DNA from: a virus
Length of the DNA stretch: 64,000 nt
Direction: 5' to 3' (one strand)
Virus record (IMG/VR): IMGVR_UViG_3300033153_013649
Location: 64,001-128,000 of that record
Shown: positions 18,879 through 61,563 of the stretch, in pieces
How the letters are laid out: each line of letters opens with the position of its first letter
How positions within the stretch are numbered: position 1 is the stretch's first letter
Translations under genes and position numbers: made by a program
The notes under the pieces: model-generated
Seen by the model: the letters and a program-made list of their open reading frames with translations, nothing else
Told to the model about the DNA's origin: nothing
Database searches by the model: none

Positions 18879-19016
18879 GAACGAGTGGCGGAATAGGTAG
18901 ACGTTACCATCTGGACTTGGTTAGAGCTTTGGCTTGGGGTGACCGTGGTAAGAGGGGTTCGACTCCCCTTTTAAACAGATAGTTTAACCATGCAGGCTCG
19001 AGTCCTGCCTCGTTCT
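18879..19016 (+). ncRNA. tRNA-like RNA with a second tRNA-like element nested in the anticodon arm
   Basis: Acceptor GAACGAG/CTCGTTC, D-arm TGGCGGAATAGGTAGACG, T-arm GCAGG-CTCGAGT-CCTGC, internal T-arm AGGGG-TTCGACT-CCCCT. Confidence 0.6.
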
Positions 19017-19224: not shown

Positions 19225-20346
19225 ATGAGCACATTAATTTCTGAAGTAACAACTATTAATTCTATTCGTTCTCATCCAAACGCGGACAGACTTGAAATTG
19301 CTACAGTAAAGGGCTGGGATTGTATTGTTCCAAAAAACAAATATGAGACCGGGGATAAAATCATTTATATTCCTATTGATGCAGTATTAACTCAAGAATT
19401 TGCGGAGTTAATAGGGGTAGATAATTATCTTTCTAAAGGAAGAGTTCGAACCATAAAACTTCGAGGTGAATATTCCCAGGGATTAATAATCGATGTTGTT
19501 CATTATTGTAATAAATTTATGGAAAAAAATCCGAACGCTACTCCAGTATTTCCAGATCAGATTGCGCTTGGAACAAATGTAACAGAAATGCTCGATATTA
19601 CAAAATATGAACCTCCGCTCCCTCCAGTTGAATTCCGTGGAAAAATGAGAAATAGAAATCCATTTTTCAGTAAATATATAAGCATTGAAAATATTAAGAA
19701 TTTTCCAGATATATTTAAAGAGGGAGAAGAAGTATTAATTAGTGAAAAGTTACATGGAACAAATAGTAGATTCGGGATTGTTAGAAATGAAAATGATCCA
19801 GAAGTTTTAGAATTTCGTGTTGGTTCTCATAATATAGATTTATGTGAAACAGAATCTAATATATATTGGAAGATCGCTAGAAAATTTGATATAAAGAAAA
19901 GATTAATTTCTTGGGTTGATTCTTATAATAAACGGTTAGATATATTTCCTCTTCCCGGAGTTGAAAAGATAAAACAATTTATTTTTTATGGTGAAATCTA
20001 TGGTCCTGGAATTCAGAAAGGAATGCATTATGGTCTTTCTGAACCCGGTATAAGATTTTTTGACATTGAATTTAATGGTAAATATCTCGAAACAGATCAA
20101 ACTAGATTAATTCTTGATTCTCTTAATTTAGATTATGTACCAGTACTTTATGAAGGACCTTGGAAAAAGGAATTAATGGATCTTGCAAATGGCTTATCTA
20201 CTATTTGTAAAGATCATATTCGAGAAGGAATTGTTATTCGTCCTAAGATTCAGAATAAAAGCTGGGAACATATAAAATTAAAGAAGAAGATTTTAAAACA
20301 TATTTCTGAAAAATACCTACTTAAAGATTATGGAGATAATCATTAA
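19225..20346 (+). CDS. RNA ligase, DRB0094 family (N-terminal OB domain plus Rnl2-like)
   Basis: HPNADRLE, LRGEYSQGL, EKLHGTN, YGEIYGPGIQ, FFDI, REGIV. Confidence 0.92.
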   Translation: MSTLISEVTTINSIRSHPNADRLEIATVKGWDCIVPKNKYETGDKIIYIPIDAVLTQEFAELIGVDNYLSKGRVRTIKLRGEYSQGLIIDVVHYCNKFMEKNPNATPVFPDQIALGTNVTEMLDITKYEPPLPPVEFRGKMRNRNPFFSKYISIENIKNFPDIFKEGEEVLISEKLHGTNSRFGIVRNENDPEVLEFRVGSHNIDLCETESNIYWKIARKFDIKKRLISWVDSYNKRLDIFPLPGVEKIKQFIFYGEIYGPGIQKGMHYGLSEPGIRFFDIEFNGKYLETDQTRLILDSLNLDYVPVLYEGPWKKELMDLANGLSTICKDHIREGIVIRPKIQNKSWEHIKLKKKILKHISEKYLLKDYGDNH

Positions 20347-20386: not shown

Positions 20387-21235
20387 ATGAAAAAGTTTAG
20401 TAAAATTCTTTTAGAAAAAGAAACTACCGATCGAAAAATTCGCAAAGAAGCCGAAACTATTTACAACAAAATTATTCGGATTATAAACTCCAAAAAGGAA
20501 AAAATTCAACAATATCAAGAAGGATTTAGTTTAGAATTAGGAAAAATTGATCCTAAATATAAAAAAACGGGGTTAATATTTCAAGTTGGTAGAATTTCAG
20601 ATAAGCCAGGGGAGCTTGCTGTTTTTGCTAGTCCTGGTGCACTAGCTGGACCAGTAAATAATATTCCTTCTATTAATATGTTTATTCTTCCGGACAAATG
20701 GGATTATCTTATAGCATTAAAAGAAATAAAATCTGATCGATCTAAAGTAGCTTTTATTCATGAGTATATTCATTATTATGATTGGTCAAATCATCCAGAT
20801 GCTTTTGAAAAGGAATCTAGAATATCTGCAATGTCGTACATGAAAAGCTCTGAAAAACTCAATTATTATAATTCAAATCCAGAATTTAATGCTTATTATC
20901 AAACAGGTATCAAATGTATAGAATTACAACTAAAAGAACTTCTTAAATCAAAATATAAAGAGTATGGTATTGAACTTGCTTATAAAGTGTTTCCTATAGA
21001 TATTAATGATTTCCTTCATAATAATATTGATAAATATTTTCATGTTCCATGGCTTAAAGCTTTGAATTTTAAGAATCAAAAGAAGTTTTTAAAGAGATTA
21101 GCAGATTATTATATTGATCTTCACGAAAGACTTTCTAGAACTTATAATGAAGGTCAGAAAAAACTTCCTAAGATTAAAAAATTTGCTAAAAACGCAGATC
21201 CAAAAAAATTCAAAAATAATCAAAAAAAGTGTTGA
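20387..21235 (+). CDS. HExxH metallopeptidase-like protein, probable internal head protein
   Basis: FIHEYIHYYD, Y.S.PEFNAY; N-terminus MKKFSKILLE. Confidence 0.55.
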   Translation: MKKFSKILLEKETTDRKIRKEAETIYNKIIRIINSKKEKIQQYQEGFSLELGKIDPKYKKTGLIFQVGRISDKPGELAVFASPGALAGPVNNIPSINMFILPDKWDYLIALKEIKSDRSKVAFIHEYIHYYDWSNHPDAFEKESRISAMSYMKSSEKLNYYNSNPEFNAYYQTGIKCIELQLKELLKSKYKEYGIELAYKVFPIDINDFLHNNIDKYFHVPWLKALNFKNQKKFLKRLADYYIDLHERLSRTYNEGQKKLPKIKKFAKNADPKKFKNNQKKC

Positions 21236-21260
21236 CAAGTACAGGATTTTTTAGTATATT
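21232..21260 (+). promoter_or_regulatory. sigma70-type early promoter
   Basis: TTGACA..TTTAGTATATT. Confidence 0.8.
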
Positions 21261-21310
21261 ATATACGATTGATTAAGAGAGAAGAAAAATCCAACAAGAG
21301 GAGAAGAAAA

Positions 21311-21769
21311 ATGGCTGGTAAAATAACCAAACTTACTCGTAATAATGTTGACAAGATTTATGATGAACTTCAGGCCGAATTGGATAAAGTTGGCAATAGG
21401 ATGGGTGTTAGTTTAAAACTTGGAAATTGTACTATTGATCTCGATGAAGGTTCAATAGTTTTTAAGAAATTCCGGCTTCAGGTTGATGATCAGATCGATG
21501 AATCAGTTCCTGAAAATTGGCGCGATAATCCAAAAATGGTCAGTCATTGGAACGAGTATAGAGATACAGCTTCTCGTAAAGGTCTCCCGGCGACAGCTCA
21601 GGGAAAAACTTTCGAGCATAGAGGTGACGTAGTTATGGTAGCTGGTTATAATAGAAAAGCTTATAAAAGACCGGTTATGCTTCTGATCGTTGGTGATAGA
21701 AATGGCGCATATTACTCATTACCGCTGGAATACGCAAAGAAAATTTTTAAAGAAAAAGGTCTTTGTTAA
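21311..21769 (+). CDS. hypothetical early protein
   Basis: GAGGAG RBS before ATG 21311. Confidence 0.7.
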   Translation: MAGKITKLTRNNVDKIYDELQAELDKVGNRMGVSLKLGNCTIDLDEGSIVFKKFRLQVDDQIDESVPENWRDNPKMVSHWNEYRDTASRKGLPATAQGKTFEHRGDVVMVAGYNRKAYKRPVMLLIVGDRNGAYYSLPLEYAKKIFKEKGLC

Positions 21770-21975
21770 TGACTCGTTATAATAAAAAGTTTGAAAAGAA
21801 TTCATCGGTCGTCGCAGTTAACGAAATTGATTGCGGCGGCTACACTGTTCCGAAAGGATCAGTAGGTCGTTTTATCTGGGAAAGAGATTTCGATCCCGGA
21901 AAGGGTGGACAAGACGTAGCTATATTTTTTCCTTGTATTGAAAAAAAGGTTATAGTTGATAAATTGACAAATTGA
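21763..21975 (+). CDS. hypothetical protein
   Basis: ORF coupled to the previous one. Confidence 0.55.
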   Translation: MLMTRYNKKFEKNSSVVAVNEIDCGGYTVPKGSVGRFIWERDFDPGKGGQDVAIFFPCIEKKVIVDKLTN

Positions 21976-21988
21976 TAATCATATTTAG

Positions 21989-22223
21989 GAGAATATTCTC
22001 CGCGCGACTTCTCAGTATGGAATCCTGAAGTTGACAATTAAGAGATCACGCCTGGGAGTAGTGTTAGTAGGAATTGGGAAGTTCCGAAATCATCGCGAGA
22101 TGAGCGTACTGATTTCCACCATAGGCCTGGTGTTTGACCAGCGTCCTATGCGGTTAGAATCATCTTTATCTGGAGAGAGCATGGTACCTACTCGAATCCA
22201 GGGTCTGCGCGGAGAATATTCTC
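21989..22223 (+). ncRNA. candidate ~235 nt structured ncRNA of unknown class
   Basis: Perfect 17 bp terminal stem GAGAATATTCTCCGCGC/GCGCGGAGAATATTCTC, several internal hairpins, GC-rich, followed by a T-tract. Confidence 0.6.
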
Positions 22224-22242
22224 ATTTTTTTGCAAAAAAGTA

Positions 22243-22271
22243 TTGACAAATACGAAATAATTTAGTATATT
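22243..22271 (+). promoter_or_regulatory. sigma70-type early promoter
   Basis: TTGACAAATACGAAATAATTTAGTATATT, identical to the 9775 copy. Confidence 0.8.
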
Positions 22272-22545: not shown

Positions 22546-23940
22546 ATGAAGAAATCAACTACAGAAAAAGAAACTAAACTTCTTGATCTTATTAGAAGAG
22601 AAATTAAAGGAACTAAATTTGAAGATAAAGTATTCCTCGTAGGGGGAGCTGTAAGAGACGAAATTATGGGAAGTAAAAATTTTAAAGATCTTGATTTTAT
22701 AGTAAATCTTGAAAACGGAGGAATTCTTTTTGCTGAATGGATTACTAAAAGATTCAATTCTTTTAAAGATAGATCAAATCCAATAATTTTTCCGAAATTC
22801 GGAACAGCTAAATTTAATCTTTATATCTGCGGATATGAAGATATTGAAATTGAAGCTGTTATGCCTCGTCAAGAGAATTATGCAAATTCAAGAAAACCAG
22901 AAGTTCAATTTGCTAGTCTTCGCGTGGACGCGCTTAGACGGGATTTTAGTATGAATACTCTTATGAAAAACATTTCTACTAGAAAAATTATTGATCCTCT
23001 TGGAAAAGGATTTAATGATATACATGATCAAATAATCGATACTTCTTCCGATCCAGATATTATTTTTAAAGATGATCCTCTTAGAATGCTTAGAGCTATT
23101 AGATTTTATGCTAAACTCGGTTTTAGAATTTCTGATAGACTTCTTAATGGAATCAAAAGAAATTCTCATTTTCTTGAAAGTATTTCTCAAGAAAGAATTC
23201 AAGAGGAATTTAATCAAATTCTTCTTACTAATAGAACTTCTGAAGCATTAAGAATCATGCTTTCAACTGGACTTATGAATTATATAATTCCTGAATTACT
23301 CGAATTAGATGGTCTAGAGCAAACTTATCACCATCAATGGGATGCTTTAGAACATACTCTTAGAACTGTTGAAAATACTTCTCCCAAATTGATGAGAAGA
23401 ATGGGAGCTCTTCTTCATGATATTGCTAAGGCAAGAGTTAGATCTATTACTGAAGACGGTAAATTTCATTTTTTTGATCATCAAACAGAAGGAGAAAAAC
23501 TTGCTGAAGAAATTCTTATTAGATTGAAATATTCTAGTAATTTTATTAAAGGAATAAAAACGATTGTTAAGAATCACATGAGATTTAAAATGAGTAAGAC
23601 TCATTCTGATAAATTACTTAGAAAATTTAGAACGGATGTTGGAGAATATTTTGAAGCAGTTCTTGATGTTATTCATGCAGATAATATTTCTCATGGAAAC
23701 GGGTTTAATTTGCCAAATCAAATTCCTGAAATCAGGAAAAGATTTATTAATCTTGATGATCAAAAATCTGAACCTAATCTTCCGATCAATGGTAATGATA
23801 TAATGGAGATTCTTAGAATTTCTCCTGGTCCTGAAGTTGGGAAAGTTCTTAATCTTGTAAAAGAAGCTTGGTTTGAAAATCCTGATATAACGAAAAAAGA
23901 GGCAATTGAAATAATTAAAAGAGTCGTAAAGAAGACATAA
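22546..23940 (+). CDS. cca: class II tRNA nucleotidyltransferase (CCA-adding) with HD domain
   Basis: VGGAVRD..DLD, RRDFSMN, DDPLRMLRAIRF, SQERI.EE, LLHDIAK. Confidence 0.92.
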   Translation: MKKSTTEKETKLLDLIRREIKGTKFEDKVFLVGGAVRDEIMGSKNFKDLDFIVNLENGGILFAEWITKRFNSFKDRSNPIIFPKFGTAKFNLYICGYEDIEIEAVMPRQENYANSRKPEVQFASLRVDALRRDFSMNTLMKNISTRKIIDPLGKGFNDIHDQIIDTSSDPDIIFKDDPLRMLRAIRFYAKLGFRISDRLLNGIKRNSHFLESISQERIQEEFNQILLTNRTSEALRIMLSTGLMNYIIPELLELDGLEQTYHHQWDALEHTLRTVENTSPKLMRRMGALLHDIAKARVRSITEDGKFHFFDHQTEGEKLAEEILIRLKYSSNFIKGIKTIVKNHMRFKMSKTHSDKLLRKFRTDVGEYFEAVLDVIHADNISHGNGFNLPNQIPEIRKRFINLDDQKSEPNLPINGNDIMEILRISPGPEVGKVLNLVKEAWFENPDITKKEAIEIIKRVVKKT

Positions 23941-41418: not shown

Positions 41419-41447
41419 TTGACAAATTCGATTTTATTTAGTATATT
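41419..41447 (+). promoter_or_regulatory. sigma70-type promoter driving the rnpB-like RNA
   Basis: TTGACA-17-TATATT. Confidence 0.8.
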
Positions 41448-41750
41448 ATAAATGAAAGGAACTTTAAAACATCAAAGAATGGAGGGCTGAATTAAATCAG
41501 GCGAGGTAACTCGACGGAAGGTACAATAGAAACTATACCGCCACGTTTGCCCACGTGGTAAGGGTGAAAAGAGAAGGCCTAAGAATCTTCTCTATTATCG
41601 GTAACGATTAATAGACGTAAACCTTCCCCCTCCCTTCTTTTTGATGTAATTTCAAATAAGTTAAGAGAATTTGGACTAATGAATAAGAAGGCTAAAATAA
41701 ATGTTATTTTTAATAGAATTTCGGGTACAAATCTCTTTAAAGATTTATAT
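41447..41750 (+). ncRNA. rnpB: RNase P RNA homologue (divergent)
   Basis: GGCGAG-GTAA-CTCGACGGAAGGTACAATAGAAA..ACCGCC..GGTAAGGGTGAAA..GGTAAC..GTAAACC..TAAATAAATG..AGAATTTCGG in canonical order. Confidence 0.8.
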
Positions 41751-44224: not shown

Positions 44225-44842
44225 ATGAATGTTGAAATAGTTGAAAAGAAAATAGACAAAAACAATTTAAGAAAAAATTGGGCAATTTGTTCATTCTATA
44301 CCCCTGAATATTCAAAAGTAATATTAAATCTTATTGATTCTATTCAAAATTTAAATTTAAATTACATAATTCATCAAGTTAGATTATCCAATAATTGGAC
44401 AGCTAATACTCATTATAAACCCTTCTTTCTATTAGATGTATTAAACGAACATCCAGAGTTGAAAGCAGTTGTTTGGGTAGATGCAGATGCAGTAATTATT
44501 CGGTATCCAAAACTTTTTGATAATTTAGAATGTGATTTTGCAGCTCATATTCATAAAACAAAGAATCAATTACTTTCTGGAACTCTATTTTTCAAAAACA
44601 ACAATTCTGCTAAAACTCTTTTACGAATGTGGATAAAAGAATCGAGTAACAGACGAGGCCAATGGGATCAAAAAATATTACAAGAGACTAAAAATCAATG
44701 GAAAGGAAATTTCTATAATCTTCCCCCTCAATATTGTTTAGTTTTTGATAATATGAAACAATGGGGACCTCCGGTTATAGAACATTATCAATTTTCTAGA
44801 AAAATACGAAGAAAAGAAGTTACGATAAGGTCAGGAATTTGA
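44225..44842 (+). CDS. nucleotide-diphospho-sugar (GT-A) glycosyltransferase
   Basis: YKP.F, WVDADA (DxD), SGTLFF, WDQ..LQ, HYQ.SR. Confidence 0.85.
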   Translation: MNVEIVEKKIDKNNLRKNWAICSFYTPEYSKVILNLIDSIQNLNLNYIIHQVRLSNNWTANTHYKPFFLLDVLNEHPELKAVVWVDADAVIIRYPKLFDNLECDFAAHIHKTKNQLLSGTLFFKNNNSAKTLLRMWIKESSNRRGQWDQKILQETKNQWKGNFYNLPPQYCLVFDNMKQWGPPVIEHYQFSRKIRRKEVTIRSGI

Positions 44843-45540
44843 TACTTGAAAATTTAAAAGACGGAGCTTGGAAAGGACATCGAGCATTTATTATTGGAGG
44901 GGGTCCTTCTTTAAAAGGATTCGATTGGAAATTACTTCGAAGGGAAAAGACAATTGGCGTTAATAAAGCAATATTGAAAATCTTTCCTGATATTATGATA
45001 GGAATGGATTATCGGTTTTGGAATAAGCTTTTATCCGGTGATTTAGGTGATGTTATTCTTAGAAGAGTTAAAAGAATGAAAGGCTTAAAAATATATTTTC
45101 GAACCGGTAAATCTTTAGCTAATAAATTTTCATGGGCAAATTTAATCGAAATTGTTCCTAATCAAAACAATAAAAATGCTTTTACTACTTCTTTTAGTAA
45201 AGGATTAGGACATGGAAAAAATTCAGGATTTACTGCTTTAAATGTTGCAGTTAATCTTCGAGCAAATCCAATTTATTTACTTGGTTTTGATATGAAAGGA
45301 CATCCATCTACTAAAAAACAAGTTTGGTGGCACGAAGGATATCCATTTTCAGTAAATGATGAAAGTATATACAGACAATATATAAGAAATTTTGAAGTTC
45401 ATGCTTTACCTGTAATAAATAAATTGGATTTGAAAGTTATAAATCTAAATCCAGCAAGTGAATTAAAATGTTTTGAATTTGCTAAACCGGAGGATATATT
45501 TGAAAATAATGAGATTCTTGAAGATGAATCCCTCTTATAA
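44839..45540 (+). CDS. MAF_flag10/DUF115 (sialyltransferase-like) protein, copy 1
   Basis: FIIGGGPSL, IGVN, NSGF.ALN.A, IYLLGFDM. Confidence 0.8.
   Translation: MILENLKDGAWKGHRAFIIGGGPSLKGFDWKLLRREKTIGVNKAILKIFPDIMIGMDYRFWNKLLSGDLGDVILRRVKRMKGLKIYFRTGKSLANKFSWANLIEIVPNQNNKNAFTTSFSKGLGHGKNSGFTALNVAVNLRANPIYLLGFDMKGHPSTKKQVWWHEGYPFSVNDESIYRQYIRNFEVHALPVINKLDLKVINLNPASELKCFEFAKPEDIFENNEILEDESLL
44868..44941 (+). repeat. 74 bp perfect direct repeat, copy 1 (copy 2 at 46498-46571)
   Basis: TTGGAAAGGACATCGAGC...ATTACTTCGAA identical in both paralogues. Confidence 0.9.
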
Positions 45541-46411
45541 GAAATTTATCTATTGTATAGTTAGTTGGCTGATACTTATATTAATAATGGCTACTGTTAA
45601 ATTTAAAATCGATGAGATTTCCCTTAGATATAAAATAGAAACGCTTCAGGCTGAATATGAAGTAAAAAGCCAAGGATATGATGTTTTGAAAGCGCAGTAT
45701 ACTGCTGCGGCGAATGACTATCTCGCCGATCGGAAAATAGGGAGAGTCGTTCGCTCTGTTAATCCATGGCTAGACGATGAGCACGTTCAACTTTGGATCA
45801 AGATGCTTAAAGAAAGTGGAGACGGTATTCTTGCTGGTTTAAACAATTTTTCATTGAAGAAATTAGGCACCGGAGATTCGCTGTATTCTCTAAGACCAGG
45901 AATAGCTTTGCTCATTTCTGTTGGCGCATTCGAAAGTGATTTTAGGTTGTTTTCTGATAGTGGTAAGGGAGCATACGGTCCTATGCAGTTGAAAAAAATA
46001 ACAGCTGTTCAGGTTGGCATCAAGGACCGTCAAGATCCAGAGGAAAATATAAGAGGTGGAGCATTACATCTTGTTTCATTATTACAAAAATACTACCAGT
46101 ATCCAGATCAGCTCGAATTGGCGCTTGCCACTTACAATGCGGGCGCCTCGCGTGTAAAAGGAAGATGGATTCCGGAATGGGGCGCCGAATGGCATGCAAT
46201 ATATTCCGGACTTTCTGCGGACATGACATTCAAGGAGACGCGCACTTATGTTACGGCGGTGATGGAGCTAACCCGGCTCTTTGCCTCCGGTAGATGGAAC
46301 TCCCTGGATCAGAACTTCTGGAGCAACTACCGGCAGTTTATTTTCCGCGCCGATTATGTCACTGTTTTCGACGAAGAAAAGATGCAGATTACGGAACAGG
46401 ATGATTCATAA
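45500..46411 (+). CDS. membrane-anchored lytic transglycosylase (SLT)
   Basis: N-terminal TM; ES, GAYGPMQL, ALATYNAG, ETRTYV; GC-richer than its neighbours. Confidence 0.88.
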   Translation: MKIMRFLKMNPSYKKFIYCIVSWLILILIMATVKFKIDEISLRYKIETLQAEYEVKSQGYDVLKAQYTAAANDYLADRKIGRVVRSVNPWLDDEHVQLWIKMLKESGDGILAGLNNFSLKKLGTGDSLYSLRPGIALLISVGAFESDFRLFSDSGKGAYGPMQLKKITAVQVGIKDRQDPEENIRGGALHLVSLLQKYYQYPDQLELALATYNAGASRVKGRWIPEWGAEWHAIYSGLSADMTFKETRTYVTAVMELTRLFASGRWNSLDQNFWSNYRQFIFRADYVTVFDEEKMQITEQDDS

Positions 46412-48676: not shown

Positions 48677-48755
48677 GGCCCATTAGTTTAATGGAAAAAC
48701 AATCGTCACATCGGCTTTTTACAGATAATTACCGGTTCGATTCCGGTATGGGTCT
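48677..48755 (+). ncRNA. tRNA-like RNA with expanded, irregular anticodon loop
   Basis: GGCCCAT/ATGGGTC, GTTT-AATGGAA-AAAC and ACCGG-TTCGATT-CCGGT are intact; 14 nt anticodon loop. Confidence 0.6.
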
Positions 48756-48765
48756 CTCGTACTTT

Positions 48766-58422: not shown

Positions 58423-58767
58423 ATGTTAATGCTATATATTCATTCGTTTGTGAAATCGTTGCTGCCATATATAGCATTACTGCATCGTAAAAACTGGTTG
58501 TTTGACAGAAGAGAGTATCCGCAATTATGGCACACATGGAGTTGGATTGCACCCCGCGGAACAAGAAGAAGGGAATTGCTTTATAGAATTTGCGGAATTT
58601 TGACCGGGCACGAAATTAGTAAAACGGAATGGGGATATGGAGGGGGAAATTTTGTTGATCGACATTGTCGATGGTGTGATAAATTGATGCGAGTTCATAA
58701 ACTTGAAGACAAACCACCCGATTCCTTACAGGACTTGGTTGGACCATTGGGATTTTATGATAAATAA
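58423..58767 (+). CDS. hypothetical protein with possible Zn site
   Basis: C...GH...CRWC; AGGAG RBS. Confidence 0.6.
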   Translation: MLMLYIHSFVKSLLPYIALLHRKNWLFDRREYPQLWHTWSWIAPRGTRRRELLYRICGILTGHEISKTEWGYGGGNFVDRHCRWCDKLMRVHKLEDKPPDSLQDLVGPLGFYDK

Positions 58768-58789
58768 TATGAGGATAAAAGGTATATTG

Positions 58790-60952
58790 ATGCATAAATA
58801 TCTGATTATAATATTAATATTACTGCTGCCGTGCGGTGTTATCGGGCAGACGGCGGTGCATGATACGAGCACCGCATTCGATGCTGGATACATATACAGT
58901 AGGGATTCGCTTTACAGTGTAGCGCGAGGATCGACGACCGGTAATAGTTCTGGCACCACCCTTCTCTGGTTCGGGCAGAACGACAATCTCGGCGGAGATA
59001 ATTTTATTTCGCGTGCATTTTTCACTTTTGTTTTTAGTGACATTCCGGGAAGCGCAATCATTGATTCCGCAAAAATTGTATTAGATGGCAATAACGCTAA
59101 TTATGGTACTCATTTTTGGTATAATATTTATGTAGCGACATATTCCTCAATTGCTACGTCGGAGTTTGATGCGTTCATTGGCTGGCAAAGCGGAGTGCAA
59201 ACATATACTGGAGACTCGCTGGCATTTTCACTTTATACGGGGGATTATTCAGATGGCGACAATGTGATGTATATGAGGCAATCAGGATTAGATAGCATTA
59301 CGGCTCACATCGGAGACAGCCTAAAATTAGTGATACTGAGCCGCGAAGATGTGGTGGCATCGGAGCCGACCAATAACGAGCATGTCCGATTTGAGATTAA
59401 CCCAGAAATAATTGTTTCATATCATACGGCAGCTGGTGATTCGCCTCGCACTCTTACAAACTTTGATGTTTATGATGCCGGGCAGGATACAGCACTTTAT
59501 ACAGTTCATCCCGATACCGGCGATTTTTCCATGTGGGATAGCATTGTTGTGTACGATGCGACAGATACGGCTACAGTTTACGGCGCATTCACAAGCGGCT
59601 CTCTGGCGGACACGGCGGGCACATTAAGCAATCTGACAATCGGCGTCCTCGATACCCTGATTGCGGTGATGTACGCCCCGGTCGATACAATAGCTTATTC
59701 GCTGATTGATACCGTTACTACACTTTCAATATCTTCACCAACTGCTCATTATGTTTTTGCGGGAGCTACTGGTAACAATGATGGCTCTGACTGGACAAAC
59801 GCGTGGACTGAATTGCCTGCGACTTTAATACGAGGAGACATATATTATGTTGGCGCCGGCACGTATAGTTCATATACTTTTGACGATGCTGTTTCCGGGA
59901 CAGACAGTATTAAGATTTTATTTGCCGATTCTGCGAGTACTCCAGCTATTGCGTCAATAAATGGCTGGACTACGGCGATTGATGATAGCAATGCGGTATG
60001 GACTGCACCAACAACTTTTACGTCTAATTATTGGGTTATGGACGGGCAGGTTGGCGGCGGCCCTGGTAATTGGACGTCGGGACACGGTTTTAGAACTAAG
60101 GGTACGAGTGGGGGACAAAGATTGATATTTTTCGACAACGGTGCAAGTAATATTACAATAAGTCATTTTAATTTAGAGCATCGTGGATTAGATACTGAAA
60201 CTGGCGATGATGGCATTTATCAAGCAGATAGTACTGTACAAAATATTACTATTGACCATTGTTATTTACATGATTTCGGGAGAGTGCCTTTATTAACGAG
60301 ATTCACGGATAATTGGTTGTTTGAATATAATTATGTTGCAAGAAATTCATCATCTCCGGCACAACACGCTGAAGCGTGGTCTGACCAGGGTAGCGATGAT
60401 ATGATTGTGAGATATAACATGTGGGCTGATATAGAGGGAACTGCCTTTTTAGCATTTCTTGGACAAGATGTCACCGCAGAGAGATGGGAGATTTATGGAA
60501 ATGTATTTTTCTATACAACTGATAATTCTACTAATCGTGAAGGAATAGCATCAGGAACAATTATCACACGAGAATCTTGTTTTTCCAATAATATAAAAGT
60601 GTATAACAATACATTTATCAATATACCCGCACAAAGCGCTGGTATTTATTTATTCGGAACTGGAAATGAAATATATAATAATATTTGGTATAACTCTAAT
60701 ATGATTTTAACACTTCAAGGACAAGGAACATTTGATTATAATTGGTATTATGGAAATACAGATTATAGAGATAGTAGTAATACAGATGCTTCTTTGGCTG
60801 GAGACGAAACTAATGGCGTTGTCGGAACTGGCGATCCATTTGTAGACTGGCAGAATGGGAACTTCAGACTTAAAAAGGCGCCGATGGTTTTTGGGACAGG
60901 GGAGCTTATGAATATACCGCCGGAGGTTTTAATGTGTACAATGTTGCTGTAA
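58790..60952 (+). CDS. large surface/virion protein with signal peptide, beta-sandwich domains and right-handed beta-helix; frameshifted near 60875
   Basis: MHKYLIIILILLLPCGVIGQ; GNNDGSDWTNAW; YNNTF/YNNIW repeats; continues in the -1 frame. Confidence 0.75.
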   Translation: MHKYLIIILILLLPCGVIGQTAVHDTSTAFDAGYIYSRDSLYSVARGSTTGNSSGTTLLWFGQNDNLGGDNFISRAFFTFVFSDIPGSAIIDSAKIVLDGNNANYGTHFWYNIYVATYSSIATSEFDAFIGWQSGVQTYTGDSLAFSLYTGDYSDGDNVMYMRQSGLDSITAHIGDSLKLVILSREDVVASEPTNNEHVRFEINPEIIVSYHTAAGDSPRTLTNFDVYDAGQDTALYTVHPDTGDFSMWDSIVVYDATDTATVYGAFTSGSLADTAGTLSNLTIGVLDTLIAVMYAPVDTIAYSLIDTVTTLSISSPTAHYVFAGATGNNDGSDWTNAWTELPATLIRGDIYYVGAGTYSSYTFDDAVSGTDSIKILFADSASTPAIASINGWTTAIDDSNAVWTAPTTFTSNYWVMDGQVGGGPGNWTSGHGFRTKGTSGGQRLIFFDNGASNITISHFNLEHRGLDTETGDDGIYQADSTVQNITIDHCYLHDFGRVPLLTRFTDNWLFEYNYVARNSSSPAQHAEAWSDQGSDDMIVRYNMWADIEGTAFLAFLGQDVTAERWEIYGNVFFYTTDNSTNREGIASGTIITRESCFSNNIKVYNNTFINIPAQSAGIYLFGTGNEIYNNIWYNSNMILTLQGQGTFDYNWYYGNTDYRDSSNTDASLAGDETNGVVGTGDPFVDWQNGNFRLKKAPMVFGTGELMNIPPEVLMCTMLL

Positions 60953-61563
60953 GTGACACAACGTACCGGTCGGCAATTATTTCTTTCGATACGGCAGCAA
61001 CGACGGGGCTGGATTCGTTTGTTGTGATTTCGGCGTCGGACAGCAGCGAGCTTGAGAATTTCTGGCATTCGACCAGCGGGATGCTGGACTCGGCAAAAAC
61101 GCTGACGAAAGATTCTCTTTACAACTATCGGATTGTGGCGTACTATGACGGCGTTGACACTTTTTATACTGGTCCGCTCAGCTTTACAACACTGGACGAC
61201 CGGTACATTAATAATCTAAGATTGACAAATATCACAGATACTACGGTGACGGCTGAATGGGACACGTCTTACGGCGCGGTTAAATCAGCGTTTGACAGTA
61301 TGAGAGCAATCAACGATGCGGATTCAACTTTGCTTGCATCTTTTGGCACCGATACGACCGGCGTTATAGATAATCTTACTGCAGGTACGACATATTATAT
61401 CAGAATCGTGGGATATGCCAGTGATACCTTATATTATACTGAAAAGAGTACCTTTAAAACTAAATCATCAATTATTACTAAATGGGGATTTAATGCTGCT
61501 CCATGGAAAAAAGTCAAACAACTTATAATTTCATGGGGTAAATCGATATGGAGAAAATATTAA
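60874..61563 (+). CDS. C-terminal continuation (-1 frame): DxGAYEY motif plus FN3-like domains
   Basis: -1 frame reads KGADGFWDRGAYEY; LTAGTTYYIRIVGY and TDTTVTAEW. Confidence 0.65.
   Translation, partial: KGADGFWDRGAYEYTAGGFNVYNVAVSDTTYRSAIISFDTAATTGLDSFVVISASDSSELENFWHSTSGMLDSAKTLTKDSLYNYRIVAYYDGVDTFYTGPLSFTTLDDRYINNLRLTNITDTTVTAEWDTSYGAVKSAFDSMRAINDADSTLLASFGTDTTGVIDNLTAGTTYYIRIVGYASDTLYYTEKSTFKTKSSIITKWGFNAAPWKKVKQLIISWGKSIWRKY

Follow-up and report, generated by a model that had tools for sequence, protein, structure and literature searches.

An inverted repeat around an orphan GC-rich sequence at a possible terminator/promoter junction of a T4-like phage

The promoter-early stem-loops (PeSLs) of T4-type phages pair a strong sigma70-like early promoter, preceded by an AT-rich region, with a neighboring transcription-terminating stem-loop (Arbiol et al. 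2010, PMC2839356; Comeau et al. 2014, PMC4122927). They flank ORFan cassettes in hyperplastic regions (PMC2839356; PMC4122927), and in phage RB49 one mapped recombination crossover falls inside a PeSL loop (PMC2839356).

We analyzed a stretch of 64,000 nucleotides (hereafter, the window; positions 64,001 to 128,000 of the IMG/VR record IMGVR_UViG_3300033153_013649), and coordinates refer to the window unless the genome is named. The virus record containing it is complete (159,837 bp, direct terminal repeats, 29% GC), and the gp23/gp13 neighbors in related contigs place the phage among the T4-like phages. At one intergenic position of the window, a non-random inverted repeat encloses an orphan GC-rich sequence at a putative terminator/promoter junction. 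A reading made from the letters alone (hereafter, the sequence-only reading) had proposed a candidate novel phage ncRNA or a MITE here, and in doing so over-read the feature. From its sequence context, we tentatively interpret the element as the stem-loop half of a composite terminator/promoter junction of the PeSL type, located within a hyperplastic region of this T4-like phage, with a probability of roughly 45%. All genes are on the same strand, and the locus is organized as follows.

19225-20346: Rnl-type RNA ligase gene, upstream of the element
Between the RNA ligase gene and the early promoter at 21232: 282-aa unknown ORF
21232-21260 (+): consensus early promoter, TTGACA-17-TATATT, which opens the upstream cassette (11/12 matches; repeat family D1/D2)
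21311-21769 (+): 152-aa ORF, the first of the cassette (GC3 0.27, raised)
21763-21975 (+): 70-aa ORF, the last gene 5' of the element (GC3 0.30)
21964-21994 (+): putative degenerate copy of the early promoter, TTGACAAAT ... ATTTAG then GAGAAT, with a 19-nt spacer
21988-22224 (+): whole element, between two gene cassettes
21989-22005 (+): 5' arm of the closing stem P1 (pairing probability 0.99)
22006-22206 (+): interior, 201 nt, 46.8% GC
22207-22223 (+): 3' arm of P1, whose last 13 nt (22211-22223) directly repeat 21988-22000
22224-22242 (+): A, T7 run (22225-22231) and GCAAAAAAGTA; the U-run after the stem and the A/T-rich stretch upstream of the next -35
22243-22271 (+): consensus early promoter, TTGACA-17-TATATT, of the next unit (58-aa ORF, CCA-adding enzyme)
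Between the early promoter at 22243 and the CCA-adding enzyme gene: 58-aa ORF
22546-23940: CCA-adding enzyme with an HD domain, downstream of the 58-aa ORF
3' of the CCA-adding enzyme gene: DUF1643 gene, then UvsX-like recombinase gene

The perfect 17-bp stem claimed by the sequence-only reading was confirmed, with 21989-22005 pairing with 22207-22223 at a probability of 0.99, and it can be extended by GAC/GUC (22006-22008/22203-22205) past a one-base bulge. The palindrome described in the terminal stem is also there, as the outer 12 nt of the arm (GAGAATATTCTC). Because these 12 nt are palindromic, GGAGAATATTCTC is also repeated directly, over 13 bp, at the two ends (21988-22000 and 22211-22223). 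Elsewhere in the 159.8-kb genome the palindrome does not occur, and the 19-mer arm is found at these two sites only, with 0.02 matches expected by chance. Perfect inverted repeats of at least 16 bp within 600 nt number just two genome-wide, the element included. The second, also of 17 bp (45263-45279/45416-45432), is AT-rich (CAAATCCAATTTATTTA), sits within a 233-aa ORF (44839-45540) and may have arisen by chance in AT-rich DNA. An operator composed of two identical palindromes 223 bp apart was considered and rejected, as the identity continues as an inverted, not a direct, CGCGC.

The element was correctly described as GC-rich (47.7% GC, compared with 29% for the genome). Since the ORFs upstream of it are GC-enriched too, the block 21280-22230 gives the impression of a recent acquisition with a higher GC content. 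Specifically, the 152-aa and 70-aa ORFs have an overall GC of 37-38% and a GC3 of 0.27-0.30, compared with a GC3 of 0.14-0.18 in the neighboring core genes (RNA ligase, CCA enzyme, DUF1643 and UvsX). Given its ORFan-like genes and foreign composition, the cassette looks recently acquired, and no close relatives were found for its ORFs. The 152-aa protein belongs, as a distant member with E-values between 1e-5 and 1e-3, to a family of ~130-aa proteins, labeled Y4mA_C in one source, and its tblastn search against phages returned no match. A confident model of this protein (pLDDT 85) had no match in a PDB fold search, and the 70-aa protein is predicted to be a small SH3-like barrel (structure-atlas look-up); these folds are uninformative about the element.

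The family of the 152-aa protein is thinly populated, with G.TF...G....I.G.N.RA.K.PV conserved, and in another phage contig (L015, 3001-3399) a member follows a UvrD-type helicase. Relatives of the CCA enzyme with 45-50% identity were detected in T4-like phage contigs, some of them beside gp23/gp13. This enzyme (HD-domain type) belongs to a phage clade, with at most 37% identity to its best bacterial matches (Armatimonadota, Bacteroidota).

The interior, with 47% GC, exceeds the flanking foreign ORFs (37-38%) and equals the real RNAs of the phage. High GC is, however, no specific marker of RNA genes in this genome. Other GC-rich islands are protein genes, whose products are an SLT transglycosylase, a beta-helix protein of 749 aa and an fn3 protein. 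These protein-coding islands (45473-46408 and 58423-61560) reach 56-58% GC and seem to have been acquired recently from a donor richer in GC, which may be the host.

The T-tract and new promoter reported after the element are both present (T7 run, 22225-22231; consensus early promoter, 22243-22271), and they are the most informative feature that the sequence-only reading had pointed out. The genome contains 22 near-identical early promoters, and a stable hairpin running into a U-tract precedes two of them: one is the element, and the other is at genome 19101-19148, outside the window and 44.9 kb upstream of its start. The latter hairpin is compact (48 nt, -19 kcal/mol), with an 8-bp closing stem (AAGCCGUC/GACGGCUU) and a GGGUUUAAAUCC stretch inside, and is followed by AUUUUUGUGCAAAAAAA and then by a nearly identical promoter and leader. 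The sequences 3' of the two stems are likewise nearly identical: AUUUUU(U/G)UGCAAAAAA, then TTGACAAATAC[A/G]AAATAAT[A/T]TAGTATATTATATAGAAG.

The anatomy and uniqueness of the element and the absence of excess internal folding (described below) are observed directly. We infer further that transcription from the early promoter at 21232 would proceed through the 152-aa and 70-aa ORFs into the element, where the arms would pair into the 17-bp stem, or into 20-22 bp with one bulge. Together with the U7 run directly after it, this stem could stop or attenuate transcription before the promoter at 22243. It would leave a long double-stranded 3' end on the transcript, likely conferring exonuclease resistance, and its length would suffice for an RNase III substrate. 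The 201-nt GC-rich orphan "loop" would most likely be foreign DNA, which either accompanied the GC-enriched cassette on its arrival or was taken up into the stem-loop. The element and the promoter at 22243 would close the two-ORF cassette opened by the promoter at 21232.

Several features argue against the terminator reading. The 201-nt loop is atypical and kinetically poor for a terminator hairpin. Part of the T-run is a motif common to other promoters (D1), which leaves room for an origin other than as a terminator tail. A functionless insert of 235 bp is unusual in a compact phage genome, and the 47% GC of the interior, along with its two GNRA-type loops, would fit a selected RNA.

The repeats could also have been produced at the DNA level, by the insertion of a MITE-like non-autonomous element or a site-specific fragment into the palindromic GGAGAATATTCTC, duplicating the site. 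Short GC-rich terminal inverted repeats (CGCGCGAC ... GTCTGCGC) would then be left, and the RNA stem would be a by-product. Consistent with this, a 210-bp insert of foreign composition lies between the 13-bp direct repeats, its inner ends are inverted repeats and the palindrome is unique in the genome; recombination within PeSL loops has also been documented (PMC2839356). However, a duplication of 13 bp is unusually long, "direct" and "inverted" are indistinguishable for a palindromic repeat, and the phage encodes no transposase, serine or tyrosine recombinase, reverse transcriptase or TnpB. The element is moreover single copy and absent from all the collections searched (phage, plasmid, IMG/VR and metagenome), and we consider such an insertion quite unlikely. 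The MITE suggested by the sequence-only reading found no support as a multi-copy element, given the single copy and the lack of a clear target-site duplication outside the repeats: TTTAG on the left of the 17-bp arms compares with ATTTT on the right, and the 13-bp direct repeat is within the palindromic arms. An insertion origin and a terminator function are mutually compatible.

Promoter invertons (fimS-type, and the switches of Bacteroides and Clostridioides) typically have repeats and segments of comparable size. A recombinase-flipped segment of 201 bp between the 17-bp inverted repeats would match these dimensions, and the element is just upstream of a transcription unit. That unit, though, is served by a consensus promoter of its own lying beyond the segment, and no convincing promoter was found within the segment. 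Every gene is on one strand, and PF00239 and PF00589 are both absent from the complete phage genome (a host enzyme is still possible), making an inverton very improbable in our view. A search of the genome for RVT_1 detected no reverse transcriptase, which argues against a retron ncRNA. Together with the missing serine and tyrosine recombinases and TnpB, this speaks against retrons, invertons and guides of the omega-RNA type.

Two unusual RNAs are encoded in the window. The first is a stand-alone RNase P type-A specificity domain (S-domain RNA; 41474-41632, +), which matches positions 61-218 of RF00010 with 72.6 bits (E 3e-22). It is located behind a consensus early promoter at 41419 and has a new closing stem (CAUCAAAGAA/UUCUUUUUGAUG). 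The second is a tRNA-like RNA of 138 nt (18879-19016, +), just upstream of the RNA ligase gene, with a tRNA-Leu-like acceptor and D arm and two T-arm-like hairpins; it is not called by ARAGORN and scores only 13 bits with the Rfam tRNA model. ARAGORN also called a tRNA with undetermined identity and an odd anticodon loop ("ac") at 48677-48756, beside two tRNA-Gln genes.

The minimum free energy (MFE) of the whole element on the + strand was -87.9 kcal/mol (z -4.1), and the minus strand folds strongly too (z -5.4), as expected from an inverted repeat. The interior (22006-22206, + strand) had an MFE of -56.5, compared with -54.8 +/- 4.2 for its dinucleotide shuffles (n=200; z -0.40), and 67 of the 200 folded at least as well; the z of its minus strand was -0.68. 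The whole-element z of -4.1 thus derives entirely from the closing stem. In the same test, the S-domain RNA, used as a power control, scored z -3.28 (0/200 shuffles), indicating that the test has power in this genome, and the tRNA-like RNA with its flanks scored z -2.46. The interior contains the following local hairpins.

22070-22085: hairpin with a GGGA loop
22086-22116: hairpin; alternative at 22090-22103, with a GCGA loop
22120-22150: hairpin
22170-22201: hairpin

The internal hairpins reported by the sequence-only reading are therefore present (GGAAUU-GGGA-AGUUCC, UCAUC-GCGA-GAUGA and the one at 22120-22150), but the excess structure that they seemed to indicate is absent (interior z -0.40), and jointly they are the chance yield for a sequence of this length with 47% GC. 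The structure of the 5' third is ambiguous between the local hairpin proposed earlier and long-range pairing. These results have a corrective value, in that GC richness and hairpins visible by eye are not evidence for a structured RNA in this genome.

An SRP helix 8, tmRNA ends and a group I/II intron core had been judged absent from the element, and this held: Rfam 15, which covers 6S, tmRNA, SRP, Y RNA, RNase P, group I/II introns, riboswitches and others, was without a match at gathering scores or at E<=10. The gathering-score scan of the window reported tRNAs only, and the E<=10 scan of the isolated region gave one noise match (cow-rumen-3, 12 bits) that is mostly outside the element. ARAGORN identified neither a tRNA nor a tmRNA in the element. 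No further copies of the element were found in the genome, in which it is single copy, and a 14-nt antisense match to it at genome 115434 had an E-value of 0.41. No match was obtained by blastn against 50,697 phage records and 72,556 plasmids, by nhmmer on 80 CCA-enzyme loci of T4-like phages (1.5 Mb), or with a single-sequence covariance model of the element on 50 whole IMG/VR records. Exact-word scans, three of IMG/VR (15-16-mers) and one of metagenomes (19-mer), yielded only chance matches once these were vetted by blastn or the covariance model. Close relatives of the phage were found neither in IMG/VR, via the CCA enzyme, the 152-aa ORF and UvsX, nor in JGI metagenomes, via the 152-aa ORF; strain-level variants may exist. 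When duplexes of the interior with the S-domain RNA, the tRNA-like RNA and 14 tRNAs were predicted, no significant signal emerged. The best partner among these 16 tests was tRNA-Gln(CUG) with z -2.8, full-length duplexes being uninformative, and a 7-nt complement between AAGUUCC in the element and GGAACUU in the leader of the S-domain RNA is at chance level by estimate.

These results bear on whether the element is a stable stand-alone ncRNA of a new orphan class, with P1 as its closing or processing stem and a role in tRNA-centered RNA biology. Such an RNA would be excised from the early transcript, or else the degenerate promoter at 21964 would drive its synthesis. The element is a GC-rich island in non-coding DNA, with a GC content equal to that of the true RNAs of the phage, although the GC-rich islands here include protein genes and foreign ORFs as well. 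Its closing stem resembles the processing stems of stable RNAs and its hairpins have GGGA and GCGA loops, but the interior folds like its shuffles (z -0.40, vs -3.28 for the S-domain control). The neighboring genes encode the Rnl-type RNA ligase and the CCA-adding enzyme, and the same genome has the tRNA-like RNA and the S-domain RNA; no significant complementarity of the interior to the tRNAs or other RNAs of the phage was detected, however. Phage genomes rarely retain useless DNA, a 201-nt terminator loop is odd, and the overlapping 71-aa ORF (see below) has no conserved coding. On the other hand, the phage, plasmid, IMG/VR and metagenome searches provided no homologue and hence no basis for covariation.

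The element also lacks a dedicated consensus promoter, which weighs against a stand-alone RNA. The degenerate copy at 21964 was read from the sequence and compared with the 22 consensus promoters, and a promoter scan lists weaker alternatives. Its -10 hexamer coincides with the six bases that begin the 5' arm of P1, and if active it would initiate inside the stem, which would not help this reading. The positive support for a stand-alone ncRNA consists of GC content and location; it is possible, and we hold it to be rather doubtful. None of the findings that the sequence-only reading had named as refuting its proposal turned up (no Rfam match, no further copies in the genome, no homologue of the 71-aa ORF), but the positive case for a structured ncRNA is weak, with an interior that folds like random sequence. 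It is unlikely that the interior is an orphan ncRNA of a new class which is freed by cleavage of the closing stem and works with the tRNA-repair enzymes and the tRNA-directed RNAs, for example as a decoy or scaffold. If the interior does accumulate as a discrete RNA, there would be three unusual RNAs around a tRNA-repair module, and this would be worth an experimental look.

The lone S-domain RNA raises a more specific idea, a naturally split ribozyme in which the element would supply the catalytic (C) domain that this RNase P RNA lacks and would work in trans with the RNA at 41474-41632. The S-domain was the only hit of RF00010 and RF00011 genome-wide, so that the phage has no C-domain elsewhere. 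The element is of a fitting size (~235 nt vs ~210 expected), its ends pair like P1, and a P4-like 8-bp helix can be drawn by eye (22048-22056/22197-22204), with a one-base bulge in the 5' strand and GAA before the 3' strand. It thus has a size similar to that of the C-domain (RF00010 positions 1-60 and 219-367), as well as paired ends and a bulged long-range helix adjoining the closing stem. The bulged base is G, however, not the universal U, and the blocks CGGCUUA, ACAGAA (ACA-AA) and AGAnnAAUG and GGAAAGUCC, which are invariant in 26 aligned type-A RNase P RNAs, are absent. In place of GGAAAGUCC (CR-I) and ACAGAAnnCGGCUUA (CR-V), which together with AGAnnAAUG ahead of P2 characterize the C-domain, the element has GAGAUCACGCCUGGG and ACUCGAAUCCAGGGUCU. 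HMMs of the C-domain halves, profiled from the same 26 RNAs, gave ~40 noise matches in the genome (nhmmer --max, E<=1000), and 30 came from a 3'-half covariance model scanned across 15 kb without filters; none of either set is on the element. Rfam at E<=10 found nothing, and the phage genome lacks a gene for RnpA. Without the invariant blocks and without an HMM or covariance-model match, the catalytic half is effectively refuted at the sequence level and is scarcely credible. The corrective value of this result is that the unusual S-domain RNA of the phage does not have its missing catalytic partner in the element.

An open frame does exist across much of the element, as a 71-aa ORF (22031-22246) or its 48-aa ATG-started version, and it could in principle be a small protein gene. 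The 71-aa ORF, however, begins with TTG without a Shine-Dalgarno sequence, crosses the stem and the T-run and enters the next promoter. It has no codon-position GC signal (0.50/0.42/0.42) and no Pfam or PHROG match. Conserved coding of this ORF had been named as a finding that would speak against an RNA; no homologue was detected in 5.8 billion proteins, where the ORF was never gene-called. A protein gene is extremely improbable.

If the terminator-junction reading is true, the locus would show T4-like phages bounding and shuffling their cassettes, with a stem-loop that swallowed ~200 bp of foreign DNA. This would be of modest interest, for specialists in phage genome plasticity.

Among the known systems, MITEs and Correia-type elements share with the element the terminal inverted repeats (17 bp and perfect here), a non-coding body of 100-250 bp and an intergenic site, and its transcript would form a long hairpin, like the RNase III-sensitive hairpin transcripts of the Correia type. 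In contrast to them, the element is single copy and without relatives in the searches, and the genome has no transposase. An intrinsic (Rho-independent) terminator is resembled in that a GC-containing stem directly precedes U7 at the end of a transcription unit. The stem spans 201 nt, however, compared with 3-8 nt in such terminators, and for this reason a simple terminator consensus scan does not call the element.

The comparison with PeSLs is mixed in its details. Published PeSL stem-loops are short, with loops of a few bases, whereas the loop here is 201 nt and GC-rich and the stem is 17 bp and perfect. The hairpin plus U-run is found at only two of the 22 early promoters, indicating that PeSL organization is not a general feature of the phage, and the sequences of the two stems are unrelated. 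The PeSL motif is ~100 bp and repeated; the element is 235 nt, its promoter part is repeated 22 times, and the flanked ORFs are ORFan-like. Like a PeSL, the element occupies an intergenic junction within a variable part of a T4-like phage genome, and its stem-loop is followed by an A/T-rich stretch (22224-22242) and a sigma70-like early promoter (22243-22271). It also delimits an ORFan cassette headed by a further copy of the promoter, and a second junction with the same layout is found in the genome (19101-19148).
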